UHGV virus genome: UHGV-0185973
Strand: one strand, 5' to 3'
From: a virus
DNA: 64,000 nucleotides
A model generated the notes under the pieces. That model had not been told where the DNA came from, searched no databases, and saw only the letters and a program-made list of their open reading frames with translations. The translations under genes were made by a program, and so were the position numbers. Positions 11,564 through 39,965 of the stretch are shown here, one piece after another (within the stretch, counting starts at the first letter, position 1; each line of letters starts with the position of its first letter).

Positions 11564-12448
11564 ATGAAGCCAATGTTCAAATATCTTGGTGGTAAAACAA
11601 GAATACTAAGAGAGTATGAGCGTTTAAATGTTTTTCCAAGCCACTGTAAAAACTTCTATGATTTGTTTTCAGGTGGAGGTTCAGTCGCTATTTGGGCTTA
11701 TAACAGATACCCAGAAGCAAAAATATTTATTAATGAGATAAACAAACACATTATAGGTCTTTACACAACTTTCAGAAATGACTATGAAAACTTCATGGAA
11801 GAATTTGAGTGCTTGTCAAAGAGGTACTTAGCATTACCTATGCAGGAAGAATATGCTGTGAAAGGTCAGCGACATAAACGTTTACGCTATAAAATGTATT
11901 ACAGTGTAAGGGAGGAACTCCTTTCACTTGGTGAAACAGGTATATATGACTATAGGTACTATGCAAGACAATTTTTCCTTCAAAAACTAAGTTTTGGTGG
12001 TGTATGGCAGACCACTAAAGAAATGAAAGGTCACTACGCAACACCTTGTGGGTATTTGCTGGAAGAAGAGATTTTCTTTACAAAAACTAAAGAGTCACTA
12101 TCCGAGTTCTACAGTTTTATCACCGATAAAAGGGTGATACTAAGTAGTGAGCCTTATGATATGGTTGACATAAAACATGGAGAAGGTACAGTTATTTACT
12201 GTGACCCCCCATATATCAACACCAACCAGAAATATGGTGCAAAGTTTGACATTGAAATGTCTGTAAAACTATGTGAAAATATGATTTCTTGGGGAGAGTT
12301 AGGTTCTAAAGTTTTGATGTCAAACTCTCAGTGGGATGGATGGACAAACTTAATCCCTGAAAATTTTAACTTGACAGAGGTTAGCCATTCATACACAATA
12401 CATGCACAGAGAAGCAAGGGTGTTAGCGAAGTAATTATTCATAACTAA
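11564..12448 (+). CDS. dam: DNA N6-adenine methyltransferase (Dam-like)
   Basis: AAGGAG RBS; SAM-binding motif DLFSGGGSV and catalytic IYCDPPY in the order typical of Dam-type enzymes. Confidence 0.75.
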   Translation: MKPMFKYLGGKTRILREYERLNVFPSHCKNFYDLFSGGGSVAIWAYNRYPEAKIFINEINKHIIGLYTTFRNDYENFMEEFECLSKRYLALPMQEEYAVKGQRHKRLRYKMYYSVREELLSLGETGIYDYRYYARQFFLQKLSFGGVWQTTKEMKGHYATPCGYLLEEEIFFTKTKESLSEFYSFITDKRVILSSEPYDMVDIKHGEGTVIYCDPPYINTNQKYGAKFDIEMSVKLCENMISWGELGSKVLMSNSQWDGWTNLIPENFNLTEVSHSYTIHAQRSKGVSEVIIHN

Positions 12449-12459
12449 GGTATCAAACC

Positions 12460-13272
12460 ATGACAAACAGTGTAAATGTAGCTCTAAACGGTAAGATTGT
12501 TAAAATGCAGACTAAGATTATCAGCGTAGAAGACTTTATTAATGAGAAACGCTACAAGGAAAATCCACGTCAACGAAATACATTAAAACGACTTAAGAGC
12601 AAACACCTTAATGGTGATGTATCACCAGACCAAACAGTTGTCCATATTGCTAAATTCGGTAGTTCACTGTTTATTATTGACGGCCACTCACGCAGAGAGG
12701 CATGGAAAGTTGGGAACCTTACACGACCAGAAGGATTGATTGCAGTTATATACCATGTAAACTCTATACTAGATGTTACAGATTTGTACACTCACTTTGA
12801 CTCTGAGTTAGCAAGAGAGAAACCTTCAGAAGTCTATTACGGAAACATGAAGATGATTTCCTTCAATCCAAAGTCAGAGTTGATGAAAGCATCTTGGGCT
12901 ACTGCTATTAAGTATGTTGCTGCATACTATGGGGTGCAACAGGTTTCTAACACTGAAACAGTCAATCACCTTGATGACTTTAAAAATGAGATGGAGCAAA
13001 TTGACTCTCTTGAAGTACAGCTCAAAGGTGTAGTAAACGCAAAACGTAAGTATTCCTCTGGTATTCGTGCAGCAATGCTAATTACATTACGGCTATATGG
13101 TGATGCTGCATTCTCCTTCTGGGAGGACTATAATGACTACTGCGAAGGTATGTCTAACAAATATGTTACAGAGGCATACCAACTAGCATTGCAAGCTGGT
13201 CGTGGAGCACAGGCTGACAAGCTATTGATGAATCAAGTAATTTCACTTGTCAACTACTTCAGCCAAGAGTAG
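12460..13272 (+). CDS. ParB/Srx-fold (DGQHR-like) domain protein
   Basis: Motif LFIIDGHSRREAW resembles the [IV]DGxxR signature of ParB-like nuclease / DGQHR domains. Confidence 0.4.
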   Translation: MTNSVNVALNGKIVKMQTKIISVEDFINEKRYKENPRQRNTLKRLKSKHLNGDVSPDQTVVHIAKFGSSLFIIDGHSRREAWKVGNLTRPEGLIAVIYHVNSILDVTDLYTHFDSELAREKPSEVYYGNMKMISFNPKSELMKASWATAIKYVAAYYGVQQVSNTETVNHLDDFKNEMEQIDSLEVQLKGVVNAKRKYSSGIRAAMLITLRLYGDAAFSFWEDYNDYCEGMSNKYVTEAYQLALQAGRGAQADKLLMNQVISLVNYFSQE

Positions 13273-14379: not shown

Positions 14380-14778
14380 GATTGTGCAGATGATGCAGAC
14401 CGTTGGGCTGAGTTGCAAGGGTTAAGACAGGAATTTAGAGAACTACTCAGGGGTTCTTCACAAGCCTATAAAGAGTACAATCAAGAAGACTTCCCTAGCA
14501 AGCCTTTGTACCTGATTCACCAAAATAATCTCATGAATGTTGGGTACAGCATGGAACAAAGGATGAAGATTTGTGTAATAAGATACTTCATTAATGAATC
14601 TGCAAAAGTTGGTGATGAAATCATTTGTCCATGCTGCAATTTGAAGTTTAAGAAGAAAACATATCAGCAAAAGTTTTGTGGAGTTAAAAAGAAAGGTCAT
14701 TCAAACTGTAAAGATTTCTTTTTCAACTTTACAAACCCAAAACGTTATGAAAGGGTGAAGTTTTTTGTGAGAGGATGA
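14374..14778 (+). CDS. hypothetical Cys-rich protein
   Basis: ORF with CPCC...C...C cluster (possible zinc ribbon). Confidence 0.45.
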   Translation: MGDCADDADRWAELQGLRQEFRELLRGSSQAYKEYNQEDFPSKPLYLIHQNNLMNVGYSMEQRMKICVIRYFINESAKVGDEIICPCCNLKFKKKTYQQKFCGVKKKGHSNCKDFFFNFTNPKRYERVKFFVRG

Positions 14779-14784
14779 TTGATT

Positions 14785-15108
14785 ATGGTAATTGATGGTA
14801 AAACATTTGTAGCTGTCTTCTCAGATAATGAGAAAGATATTGGTGTAGCCCAAGTTACATATGGTAATGGAGAGTTTTTGTATGGTGTGGTTGCTTTAGT
14901 AGGCACAAGAGGTGATACAAAGACCTTCCAAGATTGTGTACATAAGCTTGAAGAATCTGTGAGTAATCATTGGTGTCTTGTGTTTATGAACGCTGATGAT
15001 GTTAAAGAACGATATGCTAAAATTGGCATTGACATTGTTGGTATTGAACATGTAGAGTTGTACCAACTAACTGAAAAGGTGATGTATGAAAGCAATACTA
15101 GTTCGTAG
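14785..15108 (+). CDS. hypothetical protein
   Basis: First ATG of track ORF 14779 (which begins TTG); GAGGA RBS upstream. Confidence 0.45.
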   Translation: MVIDGKTFVAVFSDNEKDIGVAQVTYGNGEFLYGVVALVGTRGDTKTFQDCVHKLEESVSNHWCLVFMNADDVKERYAKIGIDIVGIEHVELYQLTEKVMYESNTSS

Positions 15109-15325
15109 TAAAGAAACTCGTGAAGTTTTAGGTGGTGCAATCATTATCCATAAGGATAGGGTTATTCCATTTATGAATCCACTATTACATCGTGATTTTA
15201 AGAGTGGTAACTTTAAACATTACTTAGATTCAAATTATATATCACAACACACTCTAGAGGTTTATAAAAGGGCTTGGGCTTCTGATGGTAGAATTTTCTT
15301 CCAAGAGGTAGTTTCAAATGGCTGA
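15086..15325 (+). CDS. hypothetical protein
   Basis: ORF with AAAAGGTG RBS. Confidence 0.4.
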   Translation: MKAILVRSKETREVLGGAIIIHKDRVIPFMNPLLHRDFKSGNFKHYLDSNYISQHTLEVYKRAWASDGRIFFQEVVSNG

Positions 15326-22037: not shown

Positions 22038-22091
22038 AAGTACTTTATAGGGGGATTAAAAGCTGACACCTTAAGCCCCCAAACACCTTTA

Positions 22092-22127
22092 CAGCCCCTT
22101 TTGTCTCTCTCATAGGGGCTTTTTTTA
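22092..22127 (+). terminator. rho-independent terminator
   Basis: AGCCCCT ... AGGGGCT stem followed by TTTTTTT. Confidence 0.65.
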
Positions 22128-22596
22128 CGTCTATGTAATAGCCCCTCTCAAATGCTTATATAAACCCTTCCCCTGTCCTTTCCAGAATCTTACAAGACCT
22201 TAAAAAGCAATAACTCTATAGCTTACTCTATAACCTCTTATCAAATCAACTTAAATATAAGCCCATAACCCGAAAGGGAAGGGCAATCCCTTAAACGCTC
22301 TATAACGCTCTATAACGGCTTATCAACTCAACTTAACCAATCATATTAACCCACTCTTAAAAGCCCTCTATAGAGCTTCATAGACCCTTAAAAGAATCTT
22401 ATAAGGGGTGTAAGCTTTATCATCTCGTTAGTATCTTGTGAATAGTTAAACAGGGGGCTTGTTATTAGCTTAAAAGTATGTTATAGGGGCTTAAAAGTAG
22501 CTATAAAGTTACGTAAAAGTATCGTAAATGCTAGCCCCCTTAACATTTCTTTAACAATTTCTTAACAATCCCTACATAGTTATGCTTATTAGAGAC

Positions 22597-23110
22597 TTGT
22601 TAGCACCTTGTTAAATCTCTGTTAAGACTATGTTACAACCTTGTTAGATTCTTTGGAGTCCCTATATAAGCCCCTGTAAAGGGCTATAAAGAGCTATACA
22701 GTCAGTTGGGCTATAGTTACTATGGAGAACCTTAGAAATGGCTGTATAGAGCTATACAGGGCTTTTAAGAGGGCTTTTAAGAGAATCACTGAGAAAGATA
22801 GGGAACTATAGACCAAGAGATAGTGACATGTTAACAGCTTGTTAAAAAGGTTAAACACTTGTTAGGAACTTGTTAATAATCTTAACAAAATAACTCTTAA
22901 CATTTAACTACTCAACTCTTGTTAGCAATCTGTTAAGACTCTGTAAAGACTATGCAACAACTGTTAAGCACTTGTTACAATCTTGTTAGCTCTGTTAAGG
23001 GTCTATTAAGAACTCTGAAGAGATGTTAAGAGGATGTAGTAACTGTTAAGAAATTGTTAATGATATTTTAAGATTTTGCAAAGGGTATGTTACAGGGATG
23101 TTAAGGGCTA
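22597..23110. repeat. array of short degenerate repeats (core YTGTTAR) with about 10-11 bp phasing
   Basis: At least 20 copies of CTTGTTAG / CTGTTAAG / ATGTTACA, e.g. five consecutive copies 22597-22650 at 10-11 bp spacing and a dense run 22828-23110; inverted copies (TTAACA) at 22538-22570 and 22880-22905. No ORF of 60 aa or more across 22128-23870. Confidence 0.7.
22742..22759. promoter_or_regulatory. inverted repeat CTGTATAG-ag-CTATACAG (operator-like)
   Basis: Perfect 8-bp arms; same arms form the palindrome in the rIIA promoter (6086-6105); CTATACAG also at 22694, 23514 and 38040. Confidence 0.4.
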
Positions 23111-24006
23111 CCAAGCAGATATACACCCTAGACAGATATTTTTCAGTTCCTTCAAAGAACCTAAATAAAACACTTGACAGTCTATTTTATAAAAATTTTA
23201 TAGAACTGAATAACTATCTATACACTATCTAGTATAAAACAGGTAATAACAGGCTTATAAGATACCTTGTTAGTACCGTGTTAGACCTTGTAGGATAAGC
23301 CTTAGAAGGGAATACCTGTTTAGTGCTATATAACAGTCTATATAGAGGCTTAGTAAACCCTAGTGAACCATCTATAGAGAGTCACATAGTTAACATAGAG
23401 ATTAAGATGGGTATAGGAGCTTCTAAGGGGTTGTTAAGATGTTAGGAAGGGGGTTGTATAGGTGGTTAAGAAGGCTTGTTAGAGAGCTTGTTAGAGGGCT
23501 ATTTAGAAGGGGCTATACAGTTCACTATATCGAATCACTAGAAAGAGACTAAGAGGCTATATAGATACTATATAATACTATATAGAGAGTATGCTTAGAT
23601 AGGTTGTTTAGAAGGGCTAGATATTTTATCACATATCATGGTGACCCAAGATGAACGTAGTGAATCCAAATTTTATAAAATTATAAATTTCGTAAATTTT
23701 ACTCAATAAAAAGCCCCTATGAGATAGATTCTATCGAATCCATATTAAGGGGCTGTAAAGTTCTTAGCAAAGGTTATCTATGATAGCCTGAATAGCTGGA
23801 ATAGTTGTGTGATAAAAATGAGTGTTTCCATTATGAGCTTCTCTCTCTTGTAACATGATAGAGTGACCCTTTACAGGGAAGCATTGAATGTGATAACGAT
23901 TCCCGTTAAATATTGCTCCACCACCTGAACAGAAACCTTCCAAGACTGACTTAGCAAGGAACTCATTTTCGCTACCTCTAAAGAGGGGCTGTTACACCCC
24001 TTTAAA

Positions 24007-24243
24007 TCACTCTTCAGTCTTCTTCTCATCAGACTTTTTAGTTTTCTTATCAACTTTCTTAGGCTTCTCTTCAACCTTAGCTTCTGGTTCATTTTGAGTT
24101 GCCTGAATAGCAATGTCCAGAAGTTTTGCCAAGTCTGATTTAATCACCGTAACAGGTTGCTCATTGTAGTAGCTCTTGTCAAGGTGCTCTTTCAGTTCAT
24201 TAAGAGAGCTAAAGCCGAATGGCTGGATAGGTGTCTTAATCAT
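24007..24243 (-). CDS. hypothetical protein with Lys-rich C-terminus
   Basis: AAGGAG RBS on minus strand; last gene of the leftward block. Confidence 0.5.
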   Translation of the reverse strand: MIKTPIQPFGFSSLNELKEHLDKSYYNEQPVTVIKSDLAKLLDIAIQATQNEPEAKVEEKPKKVDKKTKKSDEKKTEE

Positions 24244-38363: not shown

Positions 38364-39965
38364 ATGGATTTAAATGCTATTAAGCAGAAGCGAGTGGAAG
38401 ATGTAAGGAAAGTCCTAGCTGGAGAGTTGGGGCTTTCTGAAGAAGTAAAAGAAATTATCAAATCATTTGGTAAAGACCCGTCTAAATTCCTTCCTACTCA
38501 GATTCTGACTTTATTAAGATATTCACCAGACCAAGTAAGACTCATCTTTAAATTGATGACTGACAAGAACTACGTAGCTCCACAGCCTGGGTCTCAGGAA
38601 GTATTCTTGAACACTAATGCTGACTTGGTGCTATATGGTGGTGCTGCTGGTGCTGGTAAAACGGCTGCCCTTTTAATGGACTCATTACGATTCATTGAAG
38701 ACCCTAACTATAATGCTGTATATTTCCGTCGAAATACTACGCAGCTACAAGGGGGTTTATGGCCTGCTGCTAAAAAGCTATTTGGTAAGTTTGGTGGTAC
38801 TCCACACGAACAGAAAATGACTATTACATTCCCTTCAGGAGCTACTATTAAGTTTACTTACTTGGAACTTGAAAAACACTCAGAAGGTCACCAAGGGATT
38901 GAATACTCTGCTATCTACTTTGACGAAGGTACACACTTCTCAGCTTCACAGATTTCATATCTGCAAACACGTTTACGTTCTGGTGCTGAAGGTGACTCAT
39001 ACATGAAGATTTCTATGAACCCTGATAGAGACCACTTCATCTATGATTGGGTAGAACCTTTCCTTGATGAAGACGGTTATCCAGACCCTGACAAGTGCGG
39101 TAGAATTCGTTGGTATGTTATGAATGATGGTGTGATGGTTTCTGATTGGGACAGAGATAAGATTCTCGAAATGTTTCCTCTTGAGATTCCTCAAACATAT
39201 ACCTTCATTTCTGGTACAATTGATGATAACCCAATCCTTGACTTCTTGGAGCCTAAGTATCGTGGTAAGCTTGAAAACAACACTCCAGTTAACGTAGCAA
39301 GACTTCGTTTTGGTAACTGGAAAGCTCGTGCTGAAGGTTCTAACTATTGGCAAAGGCAATGGTGTGAGATTGTTGACAGTGTTCCACCAGATATCTTTGA
39401 TGTTCGAGCATGGGACTTAGCGGCTACTTTACCATCTGAAGTCAACCCTAACCCTGACTGGACAGCGGGTGTCAGAATGGCTAAATCTAAAAAAGATGGT
39501 TGCTATTATGTCATGAACGTAGTAAGATTTAGGGATAGACCTTCTGGAGTCGAGACACAAATTAACTTGACTGCTGAAAGCGACGGTAAGCGCACAGGTA
39601 TTTTTATCCCTCAAGACCCCGGCGCTGCTGGTAAATCCTACGCAACATCCCTTATCAGAAAGCTTGCTGAGAAAGGCTACAGAGCAAGAGCAAAACCAAC
39701 AAACAAAGATAAAGTCACCCGTTTTGCGGGTTTCTCTGCTGCTTCTGAAGCAGGATTGGTTAAGATTGTCAGAGGTAGCTGGAACGAAGCTTACTTCCAA
39801 GAACTAGAAGGTTTTTGTGGAGATGGTAAGACCAAGGATGACCAAGTGGATGCTACAAGTGATGCTTTCAACAGTCTCAATGAGGTAAAACTGTTTAAGC
39901 CACCTTCAATGGGAACTCACACAGATTTAGTGAGAAATAACCCTTATGAGGGACTTAGACGCTAA
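38364..39965 (+). CDS. terminase large subunit
   Basis: Walker A VLYGGAAGAGKT and Walker B-like AIYFDEG; C-terminal nuclease-size domain; start at ATG 38364 (track ORF begins TTG at 38349). Confidence 0.8.
   Translation: MDLNAIKQKRVEDVRKVLAGELGLSEEVKEIIKSFGKDPSKFLPTQILTLLRYSPDQVRLIFKLMTDKNYVAPQPGSQEVFLNTNADLVLYGGAAGAGKTAALLMDSLRFIEDPNYNAVYFRRNTTQLQGGLWPAAKKLFGKFGGTPHEQKMTITFPSGATIKFTYLELEKHSEGHQGIEYSAIYFDEGTHFSASQISYLQTRLRSGAEGDSYMKISMNPDRDHFIYDWVEPFLDEDGYPDPDKCGRIRWYVMNDGVMVSDWDRDKILEMFPLEIPQTYTFISGTIDDNPILDFLEPKYRGKLENNTPVNVARLRFGNWKARAEGSNYWQRQWCEIVDSVPPDIFDVRAWDLAATLPSEVNPNPDWTAGVRMAKSKKDGCYYVMNVVRFRDRPSGVETQINLTAESDGKRTGIFIPQDPGAAGKSYATSLIRKLAEKGYRARAKPTNKDKVTRFAGFSAASEAGLVKIVRGSWNEAYFQELEGFCGDGKTKDDQVDATSDAFNSLNEVKLFKPPSMGTHTDLVRNNPYEGLRR

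Follow-up and report, generated by a model that had tools for sequence, protein, structure and literature searches.

A predicted genome end with helically phased TGTTA arrays in a Felix O1-like phage

A gene-free island between two copies of one terminator

We analyzed a stretch of viral DNA of 64,000 nucleotides (the window), in which a rightward and a leftward gene block read toward each other and leave between them a non-coding island. The rightward block is closed by an intrinsic terminator, with a stem of AGCCCCT/AGGGGCT followed by seven Ts (22093-22127, plus strand; folding z = -4.2), and the leftward block is closed by a second one (23707-23754, minus strand; folding z = -4.0). The convergent terminators noted in a preliminary description of this DNA are thus real. 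We found that the two represent the same element (CTTTACAGCCCCTT ... AGGGGCT, then a T run) in inverted orientation, alike in the stem as well as in the 5' context, and that Moogle and Michonne carry annotated terminators at the homologous places. From the left terminator to about position 23763, the longest open reading frame (ORF) comprises 54 amino acids (22694-22858, minus strand), which bears out the earlier report of a gene-free region, except that, with the end originally given for it (23870), the region overlaps a gene remnant (23767-23970) by about 100 bp. Such a gap had also been regarded as unusual for a gene-dense phage; instead, it is the rule in the subfamily, where the same island is found in ~265 database records.

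The island is made up of one copy of a 579-bp segment (22534-23112), which we interpret below as a direct terminal repeat (DTR), between two conserved non-coding flanks of ~400 bp (22128-22533) and ~590 bp (23113-23700), all bracketed by the convergent terminator copies. The DTR segment holds 26 TGTTA/TAACA cores, 20 on the plus and 6 on the minus strand. At its left edge lies an element on the minus strand (22537-22577), consisting of CCCTTAACA and then three TTAACA cores (22541, 22552, 22563), that forms the left arm of a terminal inverted repeat and is oriented opposite to the remaining arrays. This edge element is followed by a five-unit (C)TTGTTA(R) array with an exact 11-bp period (22596-22650, plus strand) and by a central segment free of TGTTA (22657-22825), in which CTATAAAG/CTATACAG repeats are found together with the inverted pair CTGTATAG-AG-CTATACAG (22742-22759), the palindrome recognized in the initial inspection, and two copies of GGGCTTTTAAGA (22758-22783). 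In the right-hand arrays (22826-23107, plus strand), 15 cores have the forward and 3 the reverse orientation; each run consists of two or three units at 11 bp, and the phase jumps from one run to the next. A TGTTAAGAAATTGTTAA unit (23044-23060) in these arrays mirrors 22552-22568, and at their end lies TGTTACAGGGATGTTAAGGG (23088-23107), which forms the right arm of the terminal inverted repeat. The two edges are inverted copies of one element from which the arrays point inward (left, TAGCCC(CC)TTAACA; right, TGTTAAGGGCTA), and this terminal inverted repeat outscores every shuffle in all 12 of 12 phages.

Both the density and the phasing of the motif are far above those expected by chance. We counted 38 TGTTA cores in the island on both strands, compared to 5.6 ± 2.2 (maximum 14) in 1000 dinucleotide shuffles, as well as 22 copies of the strict motif YTGTTAR (18 plus, 4 minus), compared to 1.7 ± 1.3 (maximum 7). 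The 28 copies of YTGTTAR reported earlier correspond to the number of plus-strand TGTTA cores and exceed the strict count. The cores are concentrated in the DTR segment (26, with 11 in the flanks). Exactly 11 bp separate successive plus-strand cores in 12 of 27 gaps, while most of the others measure 20, 22, 31 or 33 bp. Autocorrelation at lag 11 in 22534-23112 was 0.438 (z = 9.3), and the eight tiles of the 64-kb window that score best at lag 11 are all located in the island. Thus, the repeats pass the periodicity and shuffle comparison that had been proposed for them.

The flanks have repeat families of their own. CTCTATAAC occurs three times in the window, each time in the left flank (22226, 22298 and 22308), in accord with its earlier listing as a repeat; the same flank carries CTCTATAG(AG) at 22214 and 22366, a 29-nt direct repeat (22226-22254 and 22308-22336), five copies of CTTAAAA(G) and only two TGTTA cores, with a lag-11 autocorrelation of z = 3.9. 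In the right flank there are two AT-rich blocks (23162-23224 and 23658-23714), TGTTAG pairs at 23266-23288 and 23474-23500, and CTATATAG-type repeats at 23326-23347 and 23557-23589; three of the seven most AT-rich 40-bp runs of the window fall here.

Homology to the terminal repeats of relatives

The phage is an Ounavirinae (Felix O1-like) myophage. Its structural module shows 96% identity to that of pEC-M719-6WT.1, and its large terminase subunit (TerL; 38364-39962) shows 96% identity to the TerL of Bas63. TerL proteins of the Felix O1 type form one cluster of DTR-generating enzymes (PMC4837284), and the window thus encodes a terminase of this type. As judged from this structural module and from the island, which is at most 91% identical to any record, the phage is a species distinct from those represented by its relatives' records.

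We found that the segment 22534-23112 is homologous over its full length to 100% of the DTRs of HP1, H12, Pr103Blw and UAB_69, with ~79-91% identity for the best records. The two ends of the vB_CbrM_HP1 record are identical to each other over 570 bp and map exactly onto 22534-23112. Positions 1-580 of the H12 record, the annotated DTR of Pr103Blw (1-581) and the annotated DTR of UAB_69 (618 bp; the annotation is 2 nt longer on each side) all align to positions 1-579 of the segment, such that H12 and Pr103Blw share its start base, and Pr103Blw and HP1 share its end base. The boundary sequences (left, GCTA/GCCCCCTTAACA; right, GTTAAGGGCTACC/AAGCAG, with the slash at the boundary) are shared by the window, HP1 and Pr103Blw, and the boundary columns are invariant across 11 relatives. 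Moreover, ends have been determined in several of these phages: the DTR of UAB_Phi87 was measured as 608 bp by Bal31 digestion and run-off sequencing (PMC4837284), that of Pr103Blw as 581 bp by PhageTerm (PMC8303462), and the terminal repeat of H12 likewise by PhageTerm (PMC11737134). The UAB_Phi87 record is opened away from its physical end and was therefore left out of the boundary comparison. These ends, mapped by Bal31 digestion with run-off sequencing or by PhageTerm, are fixed and not circularly permuted, and we accordingly rejected a headful pac site as an explanation of the island.

By this homology, the island is the predicted concatemer junction of a Felix O1-like phage, containing both the start and the end of its linear chromosome, and 22534-23112 is a short exact DTR of 579 bp predicted to lie at both ends of the virion chromosome. 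The DTR appears as a single copy in the window because the assembly joins the two chromosome ends; in virion DNA, the left flank would be the unique sequence just inside the right-hand copy and the right flank that just inside the left-hand copy. A physical genome end was one of the possibilities raised in the preliminary description, and it is the one that prevailed: the part of the island that is dense in TGTTA matches, to the base, the DTR that has been annotated or measured in related phages.

Conservation of the arrays and their possible role

Conservation of the DTR is focused on the motif. TGTTA core columns are 95.5% conserved, compared to 78.7% for the other DTR columns, and a gap of this size was matched by none of 578 circular shifts. 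Eighteen of the 26 cores have been retained by 10 or all of the 11 relatives compared, the cores of the left edge by 9-11 of them, and individual cores hold their position across three genera; in the Erwinia phage Prophecy, the motif pattern persists although just 14% of the DTR still aligns. TGTTA cores beyond the DTR are poorly conserved, which counts against the packaging explanation favored below. The island as a whole is ~78-82% identical to those of relatives, across genera, compared to 25-45% identity or no alignment for the flanking genes; both flanks are 78% identical to those of relatives; for the left flank, this was assessed in 10 relatives, with ~30% identity for the upstream coding sequence. 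DTR length varies among relatives in steps of ~10.8 bp, with indels of 10, 11, 22 and 32 nt.

A putative role in packaging follows from the reading of the island as a genome end, and the most likely function of the arrays is that of a protein-binding scaffold that directs both packaging cuts. In this proposal, replication would yield head-to-tail concatemers in which neighboring genomes have a single repeat in common. The packaging enzyme would make one cut at 22533/22534 and a second at 23112/23113, and the repeat would be copied such that each chromosome carries the DTR at both ends. The TGTTA(A/G) cores, which in short runs follow one another at intervals of a helical turn, would be recognized by a phage protein with sequence specificity. 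The candidate is a recognition factor resembling a small terminase; it may bind cooperatively along one side of the double helix or wrap the DNA around itself, and it would mark both cut sites by one element in two mirrored orientations. Against this, the distance of the cut from the CCCTTAACA edge element is 3 nt in one case and 5 nt in the other, and strict mirror symmetry of cutting thus fails. Along with their repeat families, the conserved flanks may be part of the same packaging or end-processing signal. Taken as a whole, we hold this explanation, a concatemer junction with a packaging-directing protein scaffold, to be probable, with considerable room for doubt; by analogy, the arrays could also be dispensable.

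Our survey of candidate binders counts against the packaging reading, in that none was found among the ParB-like, AT-hook-like and small-terminase candidates. The ParB-like protein proposed earlier, encoded by the ORF at 12460-13272, has no Pfam or NCBIfam match and matches only designed TIM barrels among PDB sequences; this ORF lies 10 kb from the island and adjoins a Dam-type methyltransferase. The AT-hook-like candidate, which we take to be the lysine-rich 78-aa ORF at 24007-24243, belongs to a PHROG family of unassigned function and received no family support. Neither Bas63 nor H12 has an annotated small terminase, and a 63-aa ORF upstream of TerL matches a PHROG family without an assigned function and no family with a known one. 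When IMG/VR was scanned for sets of four TGTTA cores spaced by 11 bp, more than 120 loci were retrieved. Thirteen Ounavirinae contigs are among them; the others belong to unrelated contigs and are for the most part perfect tandem repeats of 11 bp, and none of these others shares a plausible DNA-binding protein with the window. The idea of a centromere-like site likewise found no specific support: the repeats are direct 8-nt cores and not 16-bp parS-like palindromes, and the phage has no protein of the ParB family.

We considered that the island, above all its right flank, might be a replication origin, such that the phased repeats would be iterons, as initially suggested, and the two AT-rich blocks unwinding elements. 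Direct-repeat arrays do adjoin three of the seven most AT-rich 40-bp runs of the window, the conservation of this non-coding DNA is strong, and T7 has secondary origins near its left end. However, no Rep gene was found and no initiator gene adjoins the island, the flanking ORFs belonging only to PHROG families of unassigned function, and we found neither a DnaA box within one mismatch nor an IHF-like site. Furthermore, the densest and best-kept arrays are inside the DTR and mirrored at its edges, an arrangement that an origin does not need; GC skew, assessed in a complete relative in virion orientation, tracks transcription and gives no signal at the ends; and the divergent point between the DNA polymerase and the primase/helicase genes is an equally good candidate. 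We therefore regard an origin at this site as unlikely.

Similarly doubtful is the view that protein binding to the arrays serves something other than packaging, such as protection from RecBCD, synapsis of the ends, silencing or insulation of the operons, or capture of a host regulator. Footprint-like conservation combined with helical phasing suggests that something binds, but not why, and the phage family does encode at least one XRE-type helix-turn-helix protein (the homologue of Bas63 gp35; Pfam HTH_3, 4.9e-10). Tandem 6-bp sites with a 5-bp spacer may also resemble those bound by response regulators of the winged-helix type, of which the PhoP box (TGTTTA-N5-TGTTTA) is an example. However, we found no link between any such protein and TGTTA, the core sequence is distinct from that of the PhoP box, and the arrays coincide exactly with the DTR and its edges, which points to end formation.

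We give a comparably low probability to a nucleoprotein "ruler" composed of the edges and the phased arrays. One oligomeric protein on the inward-pointing TGTTA arrays would bring the mirror-image edge elements together and set the cuts, and the inverted repeat would aid duplication of the repeat. If so, DTR length would change by whole helical turns, hence the quantization of ~10.8 bp. Single-stranded DTR can fold as a panhandle through the conserved terminal inverted repeat (z = -4.2), and this panhandle might be a primer or an intermediate in repeat duplication.

Two further explanations fare worse. We consider it very unlikely that the repeats are functionless by-products of slippage or unequal recombination in a spacer in which only the cut sites and the homology of the repeat matter: the sizes of the indels and the length steps fit gain and loss of units, but the cores are far better conserved than the spacers, keep their positions across genera and survive in the Erwinia phage, whereas slippage alone would homogenize whole units and would not keep 5-nt cores with free spacers. 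Least credible of all is that the island encodes non-coding RNAs or unrecognized small proteins: RNA folding of the left flank beats shuffles modestly (z = -2.8), and some database records annotate small hypothetical proteins here, but there is no Rfam match on either strand even at E ≤ 1, the number of sigma-70 promoter-like sites does not exceed that in shuffles (7 vs. 8.0 ± 2.5), inward-facing terminators bound the island at either end, folding of the right flank does not surpass that of shuffles (z = -0.5, -1.6), and the small ORFs are broken in relatives. The best-looking TTGACA (~23175) is not conserved. We rejected the four or five small ORFs as genes because they are interrupted by stops and frameshifts in 11 relatives, and they lack third-codon bias; this sequence check also speaks against the unrecognized small proteins that had been named as a possible refutation.

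Significance and comparison with known systems

The DTR itself is a known kind of feature, whereas the arrangement of motifs within it appears to be undescribed so far. Papers on Felix O1, UAB_Phi87 and Pr103Blw and a preprint on Danish wastewater coliphages mention DTRs or short terminal repeats, but not motif arrays; likewise, relatives' papers and records give the length of the repeat, but not its internal architecture (UAB_Phi87, PMC4837284; Pr103Blw, PMC8303462). Our literature searches on Felix O1-type origins, iterons and transcriptomes returned nothing on the island, and the text of PhageMaP contains no Bas63 data for it. The databases hold more than 250 Felix O1-like genomes, most of them opened at arbitrary points, and many of these records carry spurious "hypothetical proteins" called in the island. 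Since the boundaries (GCCCCCTTAACA ... GTTAAGGGCTACC) are conserved, the true ends of any member can be placed without reads and false gene calls can be removed. Felix O1-like phages are widely used in Salmonella typing, biocontrol and therapy, and the island marks a sequence to preserve when such phages are engineered. To our knowledge, even in T7 the cutting and duplication of short exact terminal repeats are understood in outline only. With 26 phased sites that are conserved, mirrored edges and length steps of whole turns, the repeat described here offers a concrete candidate cis-acting signal for this problem of end formation.

Several known systems resemble the island in part. Iteron origins likewise have direct short repeats in helical phase near AT-rich blocks, but iterons usually measure 17-22 bp with two-turn spacing and lie beside an initiator gene and DnaA or IHF boxes, whereas the window has 8-bp cores with one-turn spacing that coincide with the genome ends and adjoin no initiator gene. 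The R sites of lambda cosB, the pacL and pacR boxes of SPP1 and the pac hexamers of P1 are copies of a short motif spaced by about one turn near a cut, and are thought to wrap around or align an oligomeric small terminase. In those phages the binder is known, and the ends are cohesive or are produced by headful packaging; the type seen here has two fixed cuts ~580 bp apart, a putative binder and far more sites (26 in the repeat).

The 160-bp terminal repeat of T7, with its CCTAAAG arrays (SRL and SRR), is likewise a short exact DTR with arrays of a 6-8-nt motif at fixed spacing, and the T7 literature provides the mechanism of concatemer processing and repeat duplication. At the T7 junction, as here, there is one copy of the repeat, and the motif occurs many times within and beside it; we counted 11 CTAAAG in the first 340 bp of T7, mostly 13 bp apart. 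The two differ in motif (CTAAAG vs. TGTTA), period (13 vs. 11 bp) and length, the window repeat being 3.6 times longer; the phages belong to unrelated families without sequence similarity, and the window arrays run in both orientations and are mirrored at the repeat edges. Moreover, T7 early promoters read inward from the left end, whereas both operons that neighbor the island read into terminators. Given the differences in motif, period and neighboring genes and the lack of T7-type left-end promoters, we rejected common descent, and the likeness to T7 is one of functional analogy only.

The closest counterparts are the DTRs of other Felix O1-like phages, in which the ends themselves have been determined, those of the window phage being predicted by homology. 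These DTRs are homologous to the window repeat throughout, have the same boundary sequences, lie at the same position between convergent gene blocks and are flanked by matching islands.

A terminal repeat in concatemer-junction form

The preliminary description of this DNA had remarked that the region could mark the physical genome end, and comparison with relatives bears this out, as the region is homologous to their defined terminal repeats. In the record of Citrobacter phage vB_CbrM_HP1, a 570-bp repeat is annotated at each end; we confirmed that the two ends are identical, and the HP1 junction reconstructed from them aligns to window 22184-23964 at 89.6%, placing the repeat at 22534-23112. 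A search with 22534-23112 matched, over their full length, several repeats that had each been defined independently, including those of vB_EcoM_H12 (match 1-580; the record begins at the matching base), vB_EcoM-Pr103Blw (1-581; annotated "short direct terminal repeat") and UAB_69 (14628-15241; annotated "DTR" at 14626-15243); in the match listing, KMM2 and NJ12 each matched in two places, no more than 10 bp from the record end. The repeat starts with GCCCCCTTAACA in three records and ends with GTTAAGGGCTACC in two, while the UAB_69 annotation extends the repeat two bases further at each side. The Pr103Blw (PMC8303462) and H12 (PMC11737134) repeats were defined by PhageTerm, the 608-bp repeat of UAB_Phi87 by Bal31 digestion and run-off sequencing (PMC4837284), and short terminal repeats were already inferred in the Felix O1 paper (PMC3185647). 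A terminal repeat of ~570-620 bp at this locus in Felix O1-like phages is already in the literature and GenBank, and the window adds a member. By homology, window 22534-23112 is almost certainly the terminal repeat. Judged from the matches to the relatives' defined repeats, the window represents the concatemer-junction form, in which the right-end unique flank is followed by a single repeat copy and then by the unique flank of the left end. The two terminal gene blocks read outward in virion orientation and end at the two terminators.

About 265 phage records match the region; with one exception, they bear the names of phages of Escherichia, Salmonella, Shigella, Citrobacter or Erwinia or the name Felixounavirus, and every matching record for which taxonomy was fetched belongs to the Ounavirinae. 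Because of these matches, the 96% identity of its TerL to that of Felixounavirus Bas63, a structural module with 96% identity to Escherichia phage pEC-M719-6WT.1 and ~87% to Citrobacter Moogleviruses, and its 23 tRNA genes, we take the window, on sequence grounds, to be a Felix O1-like myophage, not itself among the collection's records. It also encodes, on the plus strand, a D12-class N6-adenine DNA methyltransferase (11564-12448; Pfam PF02086, E=1.4e-22), followed by a 270-aa protein of unassigned function that matches phrog_2615 (12460-13272, plus strand); the H12 annotation names no product as methyltransferase.

Architecture of the gene-free island

The repeat lies in an island between two convergent terminators that is indeed gene-free, the longest ORF between the terminator at 22093-22127 and ~23763 being 54 aa, although the right limit first proposed (23870) falls ~100 bp inside a gene remnant. 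Both terminators described earlier are real (folding z-scores -4.2 and -4.0) and are copies of one element. Because these copies, at 22082-22127 and 23707-23765, are near-identical and inverted (CTTTACAGCCCCTT ... AGGGGCT, then a T run), an inverted repeat of ~45 nt brackets the whole 1.6-kb island, in which GGGCT/AGCCC is enriched ~9-fold. The Felix O1 paper (PMC3185647) reports repeats of a similar kind, also containing GGGGCTTAAAAG, elsewhere between genes. The remnant (23767-23970, minus strand) encodes the C-terminal 68 aa of HP1_01/phrog_4330 (residues 135-199 of 200) and has no proper start codon; it is preceded by a small hairpin and a complete 78-aa phrog_4457 ORF (24007-24243, minus strand), an arrangement suggesting that the genome end has undergone mosaic replacement. 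Two to five "hypothetical proteins" are annotated inside the island in ON528732, ON528731, PP952733, OL656108 and others; these are probably false gene calls, because the same frames are broken in other relatives.

The core TGTTA/TAACA occurs 38 times, counting both strands. The strict motif YTGTTAR has 22 copies (18 plus, 4 minus) rather than the 28 of the preliminary description, a figure that corresponds to plus-strand TGTTA cores; 1000 shuffles keeping dinucleotides gave 1.7±1.3 YTGTTAR (maximum 7) and 5.6±2.2 cores (maximum 14). The phased spacing was likewise recovered, with exactly 11 bp in 12 of the 27 successive plus-strand core gaps and mostly 20, 22, 31 or 33 bp in the others. Autocorrelation peaks at lag 11 (0.438 within 22534-23112, z=9.3), and the top eight lag-11 tiles of the entire 64-kb window all lie in this region. 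Many unrelated viral contigs from IMG/VR (L027-L143) also carry arrays of TGTTA-containing 11-bp units, some of them imperfect TGTTAAG arrays like those of the window (e.g. L032, L135, L115, L125-L127); they have no protein in common with the window to account for the arrays.

Of the 38 cores, 26 fall within the repeat (20 forward, 6 reverse), two in the left flank (22128-22533), nine in the right flank (23113-23700) and one in the gene remnant (23851); extended, the consensus reads (c)(t)TGTTA(a/g)(g/a)a. From its left edge, the repeat comprises CCCTTAACA and three reverse cores, a five-unit forward array with an exact 11-bp period (22596-22650), a centre with a distinct repeat family (CTATAAAG/CTATACAG, plus GGGCTTTTAAGA twice; 22657-22825), and right-hand arrays in runs of two or three cores that terminate in TGTTAAGGG (22826-23107). 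The left flank has its own repeat family (CTCTATAAC, CTCTATAG, CTTAAAAG and a 29-nt direct repeat), and the right flank combines CTATATAG-type repeats with two AT-rich blocks, both ranking within the window's seven most AT-rich 40-bp runs. The three copies of CTCTATAAC and the CTGTATAG/CTATACAG inverted pair are located as first described. The repeat edges are mutual inverted repeats, spacer included (TTAACAATTTCTTAACA vs TGTTAAGAAATTGTTAA), and this edge repeat scored above every shuffle in 12 of 12 phages compared. Folded as single-stranded DNA, the repeat gives z=-4.2 relative to shuffles, with a minimum-energy structure that pairs both ends in a panhandle reminiscent of the hairpin intermediate through which the T7 repeat has been proposed to be duplicated.

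Conservation and length steps

In a 12-genome alignment, nearly all island positions (~22180-23720) are conserved, with identities to ten relatives of 78% in the left flank, 82% in the repeat and 78% in the right flank, compared to 25-45% in neighbouring coding segments, where genes are different or unalignable. Within the repeat, TGTTA cores are 95.5% conserved and all other columns 78.7%, a difference matched by none of 578 circular shifts; 18 of the 26 are each retained by 10 or more of the 11 relatives. In Erwinia phage Prophecy, whose record begins at the homologous edge, just 14% of the repeat is still alignable, but TGTTAAG arrays in the window's reverse-then-forward order are present within the first 400 bp. 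In the flank before the Prophecy repeat (L018 1300-2000, at the right end of the record), another phased motif, (T)CTTCTAA(A/G), spaced by 11 bp, replaces the window's CTCTATAAC family; by this comparison, the flank arrays have diverged in Prophecy and the TGTTA arrays of the repeat have not. The overall pattern fits protein-binding sites on DNA, not genes or RNAs.

Stretches matching the repeat in 49 database records measured 569-570 bp (7 records), 579-582 (11), 589-594 (18), 599-603 (4), 612-614 (8) and 633 (1). These classes (570, 580, 591, 602, 613 and 633) have a best period of 10.8 bp, with a resultant length of 0.86 compared to 0.42 at the 99.9th percentile of random lengths, a comparison that is not a probability since the records are interrelated. 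Alignment indels are 10, 11, 22, 22, 22, 19-21 and 32 nt. The steps reflect either whole units gained and lost or selection on the helical register between the edges. Islands of relatives also contain a 21-22-nt palindromic element, AATTGGTATTGTTACCAATCCC, absent from the window, at varying positions and in both orientations (L013 1570-1590; L010 1891-1911; L016 983-1003; L008 295-315; L107 854-874 and 958-978). It occupies three different sites inside the repeat and others in the left flank, and one contig carries it twice, much as a very small insertion module spanning two helical turns might.

In open-access text, we found no description of the repeat's internal architecture: neither phased TGTTA arrays with footprint-like conservation and mirror-image edges, nor a conserved island bracketed by terminators and a length that changes by helical turns.

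A possible packaging scaffold

We tentatively suggest that the TGTTA arrays could serve this phage family's packaging machinery as a recognition scaffold, although we would not put this at even odds. A sequence-specific protein would bind the arrays once per helical turn, on one DNA face, and mirrored copies of one edge element would mark the two packaging cuts. Several points weigh against a scaffold: no small terminase or other binder was found, the shared CCCTTAACA element is 3 nt from one cut but 5 nt from the other, and insertions are tolerated at most T7 end positions (10.1101/2024.10.10.617714). The binders named in the preliminary description are unsupported, both the AT-hook-like protein and the ParB-like protein, which is probably ORF 12460-13272 and has no ParB match.

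Alternatively, a protein bound to the arrays may serve a role other than packaging, for example in protecting the ends, in insulation or in titrating a host regulator; the 6+5 tandem layout may resemble that of sites bound by winged-helix response regulators. The flanks, which combine repeats with AT-rich blocks, could possibly contain a replication origin, but no initiator gene adjoins them, there are no DnaA or IHF boxes, and the mirror-image edges would be left unexplained. Pure slippage as the source of the repeats is contradicted by conservation specific to the cores, and RNA or peptide products of the island by an Rfam search of it without a match, promoter-like sites that are not enriched there, small ORFs whose frames are broken in relatives, and a right flank that folds no better than its shuffles.

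Taken as a whole, a terminal repeat combined with a packaging scaffold is the account we moderately favor. In T7-type phages with short exact repeats, replication produces concatemers with a single repeat between genomes, terminase cuts sequence-specifically at both repeat boundaries, and DNA synthesis then duplicates the repeat. T7 itself has CTAAAG arrays in and beside its 160-bp repeat; the T7 sequence that we checked contains 11 CTAAAG copies in 340 bp, most of them at 13-bp spacing.
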